20,747 bases of DNA from Escherichia coli (lineage in GTDB: Bacteria; Pseudomonadota; Gammaproteobacteria; Enterobacterales; Enterobacteriaceae), in the NCBI RefSeq assembly GCF_003334765.1, contig NZ_QOWT01000049.1; one strand, written 5' to 3'. The translations under genes and the position numbers were made by a program. The notes beneath the pieces are model-generated. The model ran no database searches and was not told where the DNA came from. It was given only the letters and a program-made list of their open reading frames with translations. Shown here in pieces: positions 1,636 through 4,785 of the stretch (position 1 is the first letter of the stretch; each line of letters opens with the position of its first letter).

Positions 1636-1863
1636 TCCTGCCTCCTCAGAACAGTCCATCCAGCGCGCCTTGCGACGCCCCCGCCCGGTCCGCCATTGAG
1701 GTGTAGCCGAGCACCGGCACAAAAAAGGCGCGAGCGCGCCATTGTGTCGTCACTAAGGAGTGTTCAGGAGGTCAAGCCCGGCGCCTGATTTTGCAGACGC
1801 GAGGAAAAGAGACCGCGAAGCCCGGTGAACGACAAGGGGATGTAATGCGAGCCATCTTCCAGA

Positions 1864-1893
1864 TTAGCAACCCGGTTCATATATCAGTAAAAT
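1864..1893 (+). promoter_or_regulatory. Candidate sigma70 promoter for the defence operon
   Basis: -35-like TTAGCA (1864-1869), 18-bp spacer, -10 TAAAAT (1888-1893), about 40 nt upstream of the SNF2 start. Read by eye; weak. Confidence 0.2.
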
Positions 1894-1929
1894 ACGGTCG
1901 CGCTCCCCTCCCCCTCTTTGCACAAAGGT

Positions 1930-4785
1930 ATGAAAATGTATTCAGATCACCAACGTAGTTATCTGGCCCACTGGTTGACGTTAAGCGGCAAAGCCGAGGA
2001 CTCGCTGACGCAAACTATTGCCAGCGCACGGGTTGATATGAATCCTCATCAGGTAGAGGCTGCGATGTTTGCGCTGGCATCTCCCCTGTCGAATGGCGTG
2101 ATCCTGGCCGATGAAGTGGGACTGGGGAAAACTATTGAGGCCAGCCTGATTTTGGCGCAAAAATGGGCTGAACGCCGCCGAAAACTGTTGCTGATTGCAC
2201 CCGCAACGCTACGCAAGCAGTGGAGCCAGGAGCTGGAAGAGAAATTTTCGCTGCCTTCACAAATTATTGAAGCGAAGATCTTCAATCAAATGGTTAAAGA
2301 GGGGAGCGATAATCCCTTTGATATTGAAAATGCAACCGGGAAAGCGGCGATCTGCATTTGTTCATACGAATTCGCTGCCCGTAAAGAGCACGAGCTGGCA
2401 CGAATCCCGTGGGATCTGGTCGTCATGGATGAGGCGCATAAACTGCGTAATATCTACAAGAACGATGGCGCTAAAACAGCCAAAAAACTCAGTGGCGCAC
2501 TGTCCGGCAGAAAAAAAATACTGCTTTCCGCCACGCCGCTACAAAACAGTATTCTTGAGCTTTACGGCCTGATTTCCGTGATTGATCCTCATTTTTTCGG
2601 CGACCTTGCTTCGTTCAAGGCCCGTTATTCCCGACAGAATATTGACGATGCAGAACTGGCATTATTAAGGGTTCGTCTGAATAAAATCTGTAATCGAACG
2701 CTTCGTCGACAGGTTCAGCAGGAAGGCGGGATCAGTTTTACCCGACGCCATTCAATAACCGAAGACTTTCGTCCGACGGAAGACGAAGAAGTGCTCTATA
2801 AACAGGTTTCCTCTTATTTGCAGCGGGACGATCTACTGGCGATCAAAAGCGGCGCGCGTCACCTAGTAACGTTAGTCATTCGTAAAATTCTGGCCTCATC
2901 GTCTACAGCGATCCAGGGAACGCTGGAAACGATGATCCACCGTCTTGAAAGTAAAATGCCGGTGCTGGATGCGCTGACGGATTATGAAAATTACGACGAT
3001 TACAGCGATGAAGAAGGCATTGATGACGAAGATACCATCGATCCTCAGGCGCTACAGGCCGAAATTGACCAGTTAAAAAATTATAAGACTTTAGCGGCAT
3101 CGATTACCAAAAACGCCAAGGCCGAAGCACTGTTACGCGTTCTCGATCGGGCCTTTACCTTTACGGCTGAACTGGGCGGATTACGTAAGGCGGTCATTTT
3201 TACCGAGTCCGTACGCACCCAGACCTGGCTGGCGCAACTGTTGTCAGAAAGTGGCTACGAGGGAGAAGTGGTTCTGCTCAATGGCAGCAATAGCGATGCG
3301 GTGTCGAAGAAGATTTACAGCGACTGGCTGGAGAAACATCAGAACTCTGGCCGGGTTTCCGGTTCGAGTACGGCGGATATGAAGGCAGCGCTGGTTGAAA
3401 AATTCAGGGACGAAGGCACCCTGATGATTTGTACTGAAGCGGGCGCAGAAGGTATCAACCTCCAGTTTTGTTCGCTGTTAATCAATTATGATTTACCGTG
3501 GAATCCGCAGCGCGTGGAGCAACGTATCGGGCGTGTTCACCGCTATGGACAAAAACACGATGTCGTGGTGGTTAATTTTATTAATAAAGGCAACCGTGCC
3601 GATCAGCGCGTGTTTGAATTATTGAGCCAGAAGTTCCAGCTTTTTGAAGGGGTGTTTGGCGCATCCGATGACATTCTGGGGTCGATCGAATCAGGTGTTG
3701 ATATTGAACGACGTATTCATGAGATATACCAGCACTGCCGCTCCGATGAACAAATTGAACAGGAATTTAATCAGCTGCAGGATGAACTCAAAGATCAACT
3801 GGAAAATCGGGAGAATGAAACCCGGCGTTCATTATTCGAGCATTTTGACGTTGATGTGGTCCGCAATCTGAAAACCCGACGTACAACCACCCTCGCGCAG
3901 TTAAACGATTACCAGGAAAATCTGTTGCTGCTGGCGGAAATGTTTCTGAGCGACGAGAGCGATTTTCAACGTTCTGAGACGGGTTTTCGTTCCAGAGGAA
4001 AGTATTTTGACGTCAACTGGCCCATTGCGGATGAAAAAGATGCCGAATTCTTCCGGCCCAGCCAGGGATATGGGAAGCAACTGATTGATGCTGCCCTGCA
4101 TGAAGGGGCAAGCCTTTCCACATCCCCAGTTTGCCAGAAGCTCCATTTCATCTACCAACCCAGAAGCGGACAACTGGCCGATGTTAAACTGTTCTGCGGG
4201 AAATCGGGACAGCTGTTGCTGGCAAAAGTCAGCATCGGAAATCAGGAGCAACAGCGAGAGAAACTATTGACCGTCGCTGTTACAGAAAATGGCGAAGTGC
4301 TGGCAGAGGAAACCGTATCCCGTCTGCTTCGCCTGCCATTATCAGAGATAACATCTGTCGAAGAACAGCCTTTGCTGCCTGCGTTAACAACACAATGTGA
4401 GGTTTTACGGCATTCTTTTATCCAACAGGTCGAACGCGATAACGAACTTTATTACAATGAAGAAGTAGAAAAACTTGAACGCTGGTCAGAAGATCGACGT
4501 ATCGCGCTGGACTTACGTATCAAACAGTTAGATGCAGAAATTAAAGAGGCGCGTAAAGCCGCCCGTCAGCTTCCTTCTCTAAAAGAGAAAATGGAAGCCA
4601 AGCGCGCATTAAAGGTGCTGGAACGCGAGCGGGATAGCATCATGTTGCAGTATCATGATGAAAAGAAAAAAATCGAGCAGGAAGAGGACCGTCTGCTGGA
4701 AGAGGTCGAGCAAAAGCTGGCGACGGAAATAACGTCCCGTCAATTATTCGCGGTGAGCTGGACGTTGAGTTCACCTTCCGCATGA
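1930..4785 (+). CDS. SNF2-family (Swi2/Snf2) helicase/ATPase with long C-terminal coiled-coil extension
   Basis: Motif I GVILADEVGLGKTIEA; motif II DLVVMDEAHKLRN (DEAH); SNF2-typical LLSATPLQNSILELYGLISVIDP; helicase-C motifs LMICTEAGAEGINLQ and QRVEQRIGRVHRYGQK. C-terminal roughly 390 aa are charged and heptad-like (EEVEKLERWSEDRRIALDLRIKQLDAEIKEARKAARQL...). The track ORF opens at TTG 1918; ATG 1930/1936 follow AAAGG, so the start is placed at 1930. Confidence 0.9.
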   Translation: MKMYSDHQRSYLAHWLTLSGKAEDSLTQTIASARVDMNPHQVEAAMFALASPLSNGVILADEVGLGKTIEASLILAQKWAERRRKLLLIAPATLRKQWSQELEEKFSLPSQIIEAKIFNQMVKEGSDNPFDIENATGKAAICICSYEFAARKEHELARIPWDLVVMDEAHKLRNIYKNDGAKTAKKLSGALSGRKKILLSATPLQNSILELYGLISVIDPHFFGDLASFKARYSRQNIDDAELALLRVRLNKICNRTLRRQVQQEGGISFTRRHSITEDFRPTEDEEVLYKQVSSYLQRDDLLAIKSGARHLVTLVIRKILASSSTAIQGTLETMIHRLESKMPVLDALTDYENYDDYSDEEGIDDEDTIDPQALQAEIDQLKNYKTLAASITKNAKAEALLRVLDRAFTFTAELGGLRKAVIFTESVRTQTWLAQLLSESGYEGEVVLLNGSNSDAVSKKIYSDWLEKHQNSGRVSGSSTADMKAALVEKFRDEGTLMICTEAGAEGINLQFCSLLINYDLPWNPQRVEQRIGRVHRYGQKHDVVVVNFINKGNRADQRVFELLSQKFQLFEGVFGASDDILGSIESGVDIERRIHEIYQHCRSDEQIEQEFNQLQDELKDQLENRENETRRSLFEHFDVDVVRNLKTRRTTTLAQLNDYQENLLLLAEMFLSDESDFQRSETGFRSRGKYFDVNWPIADEKDAEFFRPSQGYGKQLIDAALHEGASLSTSPVCQKLHFIYQPRSGQLADVKLFCGKSGQLLLAKVSIGNQEQQREKLLTVAVTENGEVLAEETVSRLLRLPLSEITSVEEQPLLPALTTQCEVLRHSFIQQVERDNELYYNEEVEKLERWSEDRRIALDLRIKQLDAEIKEARKAARQLPSLKEKMEAKRALKVLERERDSIMLQYHDEKKKIEQEEDRLLEEVEQKLATEITSRQLFAVSWTLSSPSA

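Follow-up and report, generated by a model that had tools for sequence, protein, structure and literature searches.

What does the DNA between a defence operon and its divergent neighbour do? In the stretch of Escherichia coli DNA analysed here (20,747 nt, hereafter the window), RefSeq places a divergent intergenic region of 300 bp between a 60-aa ORF on the minus strand (start at 1635) and a SNF2 gene on the plus strand (start at 1936). The SNF2 gene is part of a plus-strand defence operon encoding a DrmD-like SNF2 protein, IetA, IetS, a type III methylase and a type III restriction enzyme. A first-pass annotation had pointed to a GC palindrome as a possible operator of this operon, and to a C/T tract as a leader modulating its translation. 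Our analysis suggests that the region very probably consists of two units placed back to back, without regulation of one by the other: a decayed P4-type module on the minus strand and a self-contained leader of the defence operon on the plus strand. The transcript ends mentioned below (those of an 80-nt RNA with its 3' end at 1721, and a plus-strand start at about 1900) are predictions from sequence.

The palindrome and its surrounding RNA

The palindrome ggcgcg-ag-cgcgcc lies at exactly 1727-1740, where it had been reported, and adjoins a run of six A residues (1721-1726). On the minus strand, a terminator scan identifies a Rho-independent terminator at 1721..1740, in which a GGCGC stem strand, a GCUC loop and a GCGCC stem strand (1740-1727) are followed by six U residues (1726-1721). 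As bare patterns, neither the palindrome nor the pyrimidine run discussed below is strongly non-random: GC-only palindromes of 6+6 nt with a spacer of 0-4 nt occur twice in the window against 0.28 expected, with at least one in 22% of shuffled sequences, and a pyrimidine run of at least 17 nt arises in 58 of 300 shuffles (19%). We take the palindrome as real because of its match to an RNA family and the covariation of its stem.

The sequence from 1800 to 1721 on the minus strand, a predicted leader RNA of 80 nt, matches the Rfam family RF01394 (isrK) over the complete model (positions 1-77 of 77) with 56.8 bits (gathering score 50) and an E-value of 5e-10. An overlapping match to the c4-a1b1 family (37.5 bits) stays under its gathering threshold of 46.7. 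The predicted start, G1800, corresponds to model position 1 and the terminator to model positions 57-77. Between them are two 5' hairpins (1800-1781 and 1780-1765), with the b1 loop UUGACC at 1775-1770, and a single-stranded stretch containing the a1 target (1764-1741). The minimum free energy (MFE) fold of the leader agrees with the structure of the isrK model. Across nine homologues, 95.8% of the cells at paired positions can pair, and both sides have changed in five pairs, two of them in the terminator; this level was reached by none of 500 shuffles, and slid controls gave 34-44%. The leader is thus a member of a known family, the IsrK/seqA-type leaders of P4/P1-type antisense-RNA immunity switches. 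RefSeq has no annotation on this stretch in E. coli genomes including those of O104:H4, 55989 and 042. The 1721..1740 terminator is the counterpart of t1 of phage P4 (Briani et al. 2000; secondary accounts in PMC4825925, PMC3632133 and PMC10111431).

Within the terminator stem, two of the five pairs show compensatory changes from G-C to A-U among the relatives and 97% of the cells are paired, while two relatives, KE55 and E7-1N7, have lost the hairpin by a clean deletion. Both the compensatory changes and the clean deletion fit an RNA hairpin rather than a protein-binding site. We also rejected a bidirectional terminator, because on the plus strand the tail of the hairpin (ATTGTGT) is a poor one and there is no gene whose end lies upstream of it.

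Upstream of the leader, a putative promoter resembling PLE is located at 1807..1835 on the minus strand, with a -35 element TTGTCG (1835-1830), a 17-nt spacer and a -10 element TCTCTT (1812-1807). In the alignment of relatives, the CTTG of the -35 element is invariant and the 17-nt spacing is kept. The -10 element reads TATnnT or TAGCAT in 12 of 12 relatives, including P4 (TATAGT), versus TCTCTT in the window, where alone the conserved A at the second position has been replaced by C. A consensus promoter scan did not find a promoter on the minus strand here. By consensus rules, the -10 element of the leader is likely to be defective.

Known relatives and the junction with plasmid DNA

IsrK has been equated with seqA, and C4 with CI RNA (PMC3632133, PMC4825925, PMC10111431). 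Similar to the window, the left-operon leader of phage P4 (seqA and t1, 5' of cI) belongs to the isrK family (60.8 bits versus 56.8 bits in the window), and both show one order of elements: a promoter (putative in the window), two hairpins with a GCAAAAUC loop, a single-stranded target stretch and a GC hairpin with a U-tract. In P4, the isrK match (8692..8615, 60.8 bits) is followed by C4/CI (8507..8420, 74.9 bits), and P4 retains an intact CI RNA and seqC; in contrast, the C4 of the window breaks off at about 41 nt, and plasmid DNA has taken the place of the remainder. Unlike in P4, the -10 element of the window is degenerate, and the target-loop sequences, which determine specificity, differ between the two. 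An intact C4 lies 20-25 nt 3' of isrK in P4 (74.9 bits), in R32 (72.9 bits) and in four other Enterobacterales (74-81 bits). The order isrK-then-C4, together with a b1 loop identical to that of the window, is found in Serratia, Leminorella, Budvicia and Enterobacteriaceae RIT693 loci. A 19-mer genome scan returned four true Enterobacterales loci and about 24 matches in unrelated taxa (Pandoraea and others). The cognate intact C4 of loci sharing the b1 loop carries AAGGUCAA. In the E. coli 40EC-type C4, the a' loop GUCACUAAG is a match for the a1 sequence of the window (CUUAGUGAC).

The founding member of RF01394 is IsrK of Salmonella Gifsy-1 (isrK-orf45/STnc1160-anrP), and the window leader scores above the family threshold. 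Gifsy-1 IsrK is a terminated leader of approximately 80-90 nt that also forms the 5' part of a read-through transcript (PMC4825925), and the window leader is predicted to be alike. Gifsy-1 differs in that the window lacks orf45/STnc1160 (C4-like) and a downstream antirepressor or antiterminator, and for the trans-activation circuit of IsrK no target is visible in the window. The layout of the c4 system of phages P1 and P7 (a1 b1 - c4 - b2 a2 - icd - ant) is identical in the intact relatives of the window module. In the window itself, the leader matches c4-a1b1 below threshold, as noted above, and neither the c4 RNA nor the b2/a2 targets are present. A further comparison is with the IsrK-C4 modules of E. 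coli tRNA-gene islands, which share approximately 80% identity with the window over 1660-1836. There, as in the window, the leader lies at the inner edge of an integrase-proximal module and faces variable cargo. Downstream, these islands keep C4 and two genes, a 156-aa ORF and one for an SfsB/Ner-like HTH protein, where the window has a plasmid fragment.

In the intact relatives, a constitutive promoter produces a leader RNA (IsrK in Salmonella, seqA in P4) with the targets a1 and b1 that ends at a Rho-independent terminator. Transcripts reading through it are processed to the C4/CI antisense RNA, which pairs with a1/b1, enforcing termination, and with a second pair of targets, b2/a2, that covers the ribosome-binding site of the gene that follows. 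In the intact relatives of the window module, b2/a2 lie over the Shine-Dalgarno sequence of the next ORF.

What remains of C4 in the window is a stretch on the minus strand at 1660..1700 that, by alignment, covers the first ~41 of 87 model positions and keeps the 5' strand of the outer stem and the first inner hairpin. The module no longer has the antisense loops a' and b', the 3' strand of C4 or, further downstream, the seqC (b2/a2) targets. C4 (RF01695, threshold 45 bits) has no match in the window, either at the gathering threshold or at E<=1, and a search for a partial C4 RNA in 1560-1722 at E<=10 gave noise matches only. The break coincides with a recombination junction at 1660..1666, a GCGC(T/C)GG microhomology with the P4-type module to its right and a ColE1-type plasmid segment to its left. 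P4-type homology in ~900 E. coli genomes begins at 1660-1663, plasmid homology stops at 1666, and a four-way alignment displays the switch from module to plasmid sequence. The plasmid-derived segment (560..1666) replaces the remainder of the module; positions 566-1666 are 95.9% identical to the 5.3-kb Escherichia albertii plasmid pEA5_2. It contains RNAI on the plus strand (753-858; RF00106, 59.9 bits) and, on the minus strand in RefSeq, a DUF2931 gene (932-1450) and the 60-aa ORF (1453-1635). In the region of this ORF, a strong duplex value for the small RNA (sRNA) reflects a long GC-rich pairing with the C4 remnant.

The module in the window is a relic, since the junction is chimeric, C4 is absent at E<=10 and the -10 element is TCTCTT where relatives have TA. 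C4 lost its 3' half in a recombination with a ColE1-type plasmid fragment, which also took away the second targets and the regulated genes. The remaining leader and terminator are orphans, most likely silent or expressed at a low level.

The leader of the defence operon

On the other strand, a putative sigma-70 promoter of the defence operon lies at 1864..1893, with a -35 element TTAGCA (1864-1869), an 18-nt spacer and a -10 element TAAAAT (1888-1893); it scores 9 of 12 in the consensus scan, with a predicted start near G1900. The string GTAAAATA is kept at equal distance from the ATG in 85%-identical copies of the operon in a different type of island. The predicted 5' UTR of the SNF2 (DrmD-like) mRNA is 36 nt long (1900..1935). 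The C/T string cgctcccctccccctcttt is present at 1901-1919, one base off the 1900-1919 first assigned to it, and includes a pure pyrimidine run of 17 nt (1903-1919), the longest homopurine/homopyrimidine run in the window. The AAAGG motif occurs downstream of the tract at 1924-1928, followed by an ATG at 1930. In RefSeq the start is the ATG at 1936, and ATG 1930 is ATA in the 85%-identical operon copies; AAAGG therefore lies 7 nt from the real start codon and does not abut it. It appears to be a weak Shine-Dalgarno sequence of the SNF2 gene.

The idea of a translation-modulating leader holds in part, as the tract falls within the predicted 5' UTR, 3' of the conserved -10 element; on the other hand, it is predicted to be unstructured and its sequence is not conserved. 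The SNF2 leader folds with -3.7 kcal/mol (z +1.17), a stability equalled or exceeded by 181 of 200 shuffles; a second type of leader reaches -4.0 kcal/mol (z +0.56). No Rfam match was found in 1801-1965, and a hairpin sequestering the Shine-Dalgarno sequence (CUCUUU/AAAGG) is absent from the MFE and centroid structures. Pairing of the sRNA with the translation-initiation region of SNF2 was rejected as well, its duplex energy being matched by 45% of shuffled sRNAs. Pyrimidines make up 23 of 31 leader positions in the window and 19-20 of 31 in the second leader type, with approximately 50% sequence identity between them. By this comparison the C/T tract appears to be conserved in composition but not in sequence, and the recurrence of the bias could mean a function. 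Among distant SNF2 homologues (plasmid tblastn; 79% identity in Aeromonas, 42-50% in others), WYL or HTH genes lie upstream and no homologous leader was found. A pattern scan of metagenomes yielded just the two known leader types and five chance matches (four unrelated sequences).

The first-pass annotation saw no case for classical phase variation. In agreement with this, the length of the tract is constant in 66 complete genomes and 8 metagenome contigs; its only change among the 66 genomes is one substitution, C1903T, and the 8 contigs are identical. Since the 66 carriers of the window arrangement are at least 99% identical, they are uninformative on selection.

On our interpretation, the defence operon comes with a promoter of its own and with a 5' UTR that is short, unstructured and rich in pyrimidines, the C/T tract forming the bulk of it. 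The role of the tract is most likely a passive one, keeping the weak Shine-Dalgarno sequence open. Ribosomal protein S1 may find a single-stranded pyrimidine landing site in such a tract.

Alternative readings and implications

A perfect 6+6 GC inverted repeat within a divergent intergenic region would be an attractive site for a dimeric regulator controlling the defence operon, yet we regard this operator as scarcely credible. The palindrome is 124 bp away from the predicted -35 element of the operon, on its upstream side, and is not next to any regulator gene in the window. The P4-type module occurs in ~900 other E. coli genomes beside unrelated cargo such as type I R-M, reverse transcriptase, AbiE and Rhs/T6SS, and the module with its palindrome is missing upstream of the 85%-identical copies of the same operon, which argues that the palindrome is not the operator of that operon. 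Covariation is seen in its stem, two relatives do without it, and its identity as a minus-strand terminator that travels with the P4-type module fully accounts for it. It is improbable, but less so, that transcription of the IsrK/seqA-type orphan continues from the weakened promoter and that its RNA acts in trans, either as an Hfq-binding sRNA like Gifsy-1 IsrK or as a decoy for the C4/CI RNAs of resident or incoming elements with matching a'/b' loops. The leader is structurally intact and above the family threshold, it shares its b1 loop with loci that have an intact cognate C4 (AAGGUCAA), and its a1 sequence CUUAGUGAC matches the 40EC-type a' loop GUCACUAAG. Moreover, IsrK acts in trans in Salmonella (PMC4825925), and IsrK-like elements are required in S. 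Typhi according to TraDIS (PMC3632133). However, the conserved A at the second -10 position has been lost, the cognate C4, the seqC target and the regulated gene are all missing in cis, and there is no sign of purifying selection among carriers that are all near-identical. With its a1/b1 sites intact and its C4 lost in cis, the orphan leader might have been kept as an RNA decoy. It would titrate the CI/C4 RNAs of P4-like satellites, PICIs or prophages whose loops match, or act as IsrK does on the read-through transcripts of these elements, but this we consider very improbable. If true, satellite or prophage lysogeny or immunity would be destabilised, and the neighbouring defence island would have an accessory that works at the RNA level.

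Whether the C/T tract is itself an active element, be it an S1-dependent translational enhancer that makes up for the weak Shine-Dalgarno sequence, part of a C-rich, G-poor Rho-loading site that causes premature termination, or supercoil-sensitive homopyrimidine H-DNA, is doubtful. The length of the run within the window, its position in the predicted 5' UTR just 5' of a weak Shine-Dalgarno sequence, the predicted single-strandedness of the leader and the pyrimidine bias that recurs in the second leader type despite a differing sequence would all be consistent with such a role. Nevertheless, 19% of shuffles contain a run of this length, the tract lacks sequence conservation, a WYL or HTH gene takes the place of such a leader in distant SNF2 homologues, and a Rho-loading site would be expected to be longer than 17-36 nt.

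In roughly one in six E. coli genomes, an intact IsrK-C4 module forms the inner boundary of variable cargo, where PGAP mislabels it as a gene for an 'ash family protein'. The module is thus useful for delimiting islands and for their annotation. For the locus studied here, the main value of the analysis is a correction: the stretch around the palindrome does not serve the defence operon as regulatory DNA but is a broken, though recognisable, copy of the P4/P1-type antisense-RNA immunity switch. The assembly of the island can be read from it as well, with a P4-type module truncated by a ColE1-plasmid fragment and set back to back with a self-contained defence cassette.

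A degenerate isrK/seqA-family leader RNA

The first-pass annotation described a palindrome, GGCGCG-AG-CGCGCC, at 1727-1740 with an A6 run just before it (1721-1726), and both are present as described. On the minus strand they read GGCGC-GCUC-GCGCC-UUUUUU, the sole terminator-like site found in a scan of 1300-2300. As bare patterns, neither the palindrome nor the nearby pyrimidine run stands out strongly from chance: the window holds two GC-only 6+6 palindromes against 0.28 expected (at least one in 22% of shuffles), and its longest homopurine or homopyrimidine run, 17 nt at 1903-1919, was matched in length in 58 of 300 shuffles.

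Rfam places a full-length isrK-family RNA (RF01394) on the minus strand at 1800..1721, scoring 56.8 bits where the gathering score is 50; a c4-a1b1 match overlaps it and scores under the threshold of that family. The final hairpin of the isrK model corresponds to the palindrome. A scan of phage P4 likewise gave an isrK-family element (8692..8615), with a C4-family CI RNA downstream of it (8507..8420). The Rho-independent site between the P4 promoter and cI is reportedly called t1 in Briani et al. 2000. Published accounts make the link between the families explicit: SeqA RNA has been described as "a structural homolog of IsrK" (PMC4825925), and both Rfam profiles serve to find relatives of CI and seqA in satellites (PMC10111431). 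In P4, CI-seqA pairing leads to early termination of the leader transcribed from the constitutive promoter, and the same transcript is processed to yield CI (PMC4825925, PMC10111431).

Homologues support the hairpin. In an alignment of nine sequences (seven E. coli loci of ~80% identity, P4 and the window) the three helices are 95.8% paired. Changes on both sides are seen at five base pairs; two of these belong to the terminator stem and go from G-C to A-U. These pairing and covariation values were reached in none of 500 shuffles, and slid registers were 34-44% paired. Two E. coli relatives, KE55 (L010, ~5040-5075) and E7-1N7 (L011, ~5035-5070), lack exactly the terminator hairpin, keeping both 5' hairpins of the leader and an intact C4 downstream; control in these strains would have to proceed without a t1-type terminator.

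The predicted leader start, G1800, is position 1 of the isrK model. Upstream, the alignment points to a putative minus-strand promoter with an invariant CTTG at the -35 element (TTGTCG in the window, 1835-1830), followed after a 17-nt spacer by the -10 element. The latter is TATnnT or TAGCAT in 12 of 12 relatives examined and TCTCTT (1812-1807) in the window alone. By the general rules of promoter sequence, a -10 element lacking the A at its second position would be expected to make this promoter much weaker.

Truncation of the module at a plasmid junction

Wherever a relative is intact, its terminator is followed after 20-25 nt by a C4 RNA (73-81 bits). Four Enterobacterales loci share the b1 target loop of the window (CUUGACC); their C4 carries the complementary AAGGUCAA, and they have a second pair of targets, b2/a2, overlapping the GGAGG Shine-Dalgarno sequence of the next ORF, which is the classical layout of P1 c4 and P4 seqA-CI-seqC. 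Of C4 the window retains only the first ~41 nt (1700..1660, minus strand), and a search of 1560-1722 for C4 gave no match even at E<=10. A ColE1-type plasmid segment 95.9% identical to Escherichia albertii pEA5_2 occupies 560/566-1666, and a four-way alignment places the switch from P4-type to plasmid homology within a GCGC(T/C)GG microhomology at 1660-1666. Missing from the window are the antisense loops, the second target pair and the genes under control of the module, which in relatives are a 156-aa ORF and an SfsB/Ner-like HTH gene.

In a comparison with L008 and L033/L037, the specificity determinants of the leader look mosaic: its b1 loop (1775-1770) is shared with Serratia, Leminorella and Budvicia modules, and its a1 stretch (CUUAGUGAC, 1764-1741) with the E. 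coli 40EC module, of which b1 differs. The 19-mer CCGGGCTTGACCTCCTGAA also occurs in ~24 unrelated genomes, ~10 of them Pandoraea species (L017-L029, L031-L032, L034-L036, L038-L043); since ~2 matches are expected by chance, it probably lies within a conserved gene or element in Pandoraea.

E. coli 55989, 042 and O104:H4 carry a tRNA-Phe (pheV)-associated island to which the window is 100% identical. RefSeq lists an integrase, a small hypothetical gene, a replication-initiation fragment, a DUF2931 gene (932-1450, minus) and a 60-aa ORF (1453-1635, minus), leaves 1636-1935 without annotation, and starts the plus-strand defence operon at ATG 1936. The fragment of a small plasmid (pEA5_2 is 5.3 kb) within this chromosomal island includes an RNAI match (753-858, plus, 59.9 bits) and a replication-protein fragment, together with the DUF2931 gene and the 60-aa ORF, which on plasmids adjoin a DUF2235 gene.

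The defence operon and its predicted pyrimidine-rich leader

PADLOC profiles identify in the operon (1936-12699) a DrmD-like SNF2 helicase (669 bits), IetA (350), IetS (1206), a type III methyltransferase (967) and a type III restriction enzyme (2117). Aeromonas plasmids carry an SNF2 gene of 79% identity, with a WYL-domain gene before it and an AAA ATPase and a DUF4276 gene after it; the SNF2 gene thus pairs with differing partners. Strain 042 (NC_017626.1) aligns over 699 nt with the 700-nt query 1801-2500, and there the 5' portion of the SNF2 gene is annotated as its own hypothetical protein (2101-2500 compared), which suggests a 1-nt frameshift in the DrmD-like gene of this strain.

The palindrome had been proposed as an operator of this operon, a reading that we reject. 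Elsewhere the module neighbors unrelated genes (a nuclease with AbiE, type I R-M, a reverse transcriptase with AbiE, or Rhs/T6SS genes). The same operon occurs at ~85% identity in four E. coli genomes, on a different island type, and all four copies lack an IsrK/C4 module upstream. The palindrome also lies 124 bp upstream of the predicted -35 element of the operon. Pairing of the small RNA with the SNF2 initiation region was no better than chance.

A consensus scan gave a single sigma-70-like site in the region, TTAGCA-18-TAAAAT (1864-1893, plus). The 85%-identical copies keep GTAAAATA equally far from the start codon, with only ~50% identity in the stretch from there to the Shine-Dalgarno sequence. 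Were transcription to start near G1900, the 5' UTR would be 36 nt long and consist mostly of the C/T tract, which begins at 1901 and ends at 1919, its start having first been placed one base too early, at 1900. AAAGG (1924-1928) stands 7 nt upstream of ATG 1936. The ATG at 1930 is ATA in the 85%-identical copies, so the start codon is ATG 1936, in agreement with RefSeq.

The suggestion that the tract is a translation-modulating leader holds as far as its location in the predicted 5' UTR; the rest is not upheld. Both leader types are pyrimidine-rich (23/31 in the window type, 19-20/31 in the other) and predicted to be unstructured (-3.7 kcal/mol, z +1.17, and -4.0, z +0.56, respectively), and an Rfam search of the leader region matched no family. 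The first-pass annotation found classical phase variation unsupported, and this is confirmed: tract length is constant in 66/66 complete genomes and 8/8 metagenome contigs with the window-type leader, C1903T in one genome being the sole variant reported. Upstream of more distant SNF2 homologues, a WYL or HTH gene stands in place of such a leader. Our conclusion is that the tract forms an unstructured leader specific to its lineage. S1 binding or Rho loading are possible roles; the most economical reading is that the tract passively keeps a weak Shine-Dalgarno sequence accessible.

Distribution and annotation of the module

A block of ~80% identity, matching only 1660-1818/1836 of the window, occurs in ~900 further E. 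coli genomes, where PGAP names it "ash family protein". Short ORFs of that name cover C4/CI RNA and IsrK/seqA leader DNA identified by Rfam (L002 8783-9094; L006 4879-5037; L007 4942-5106; L009 4879-5037), and for the one in strain R32 NCBIfam and PHROG give no supporting family. In these cases RNA genes have probably been mistaken for protein-coding ones.

Among 5426 complete E. coli genomes, ~900 have an intact IsrK-C4 module with the 156-aa ORF and the SfsB/Ner-like HTH gene after it. The module sits at the inner edge of an integrase-proximal block, in islands at tRNA-Phe, tRNA-Thr and other sites (L002, L006-L011), and the cargo that it faces varies widely (type I R-M, reverse transcriptase, AbiE, ATP-dependent nuclease, Rhs/T6SS). 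The intact module may serve as a landmark for cargo hotspots. In the window, both the leader RNA and the defence-operon transcript are predictions from sequence. The palindrome and A-run belong to a degenerate and so far unannotated member of a well-described RNA family; its interest lies mainly in annotation and in tracing how the island came together.
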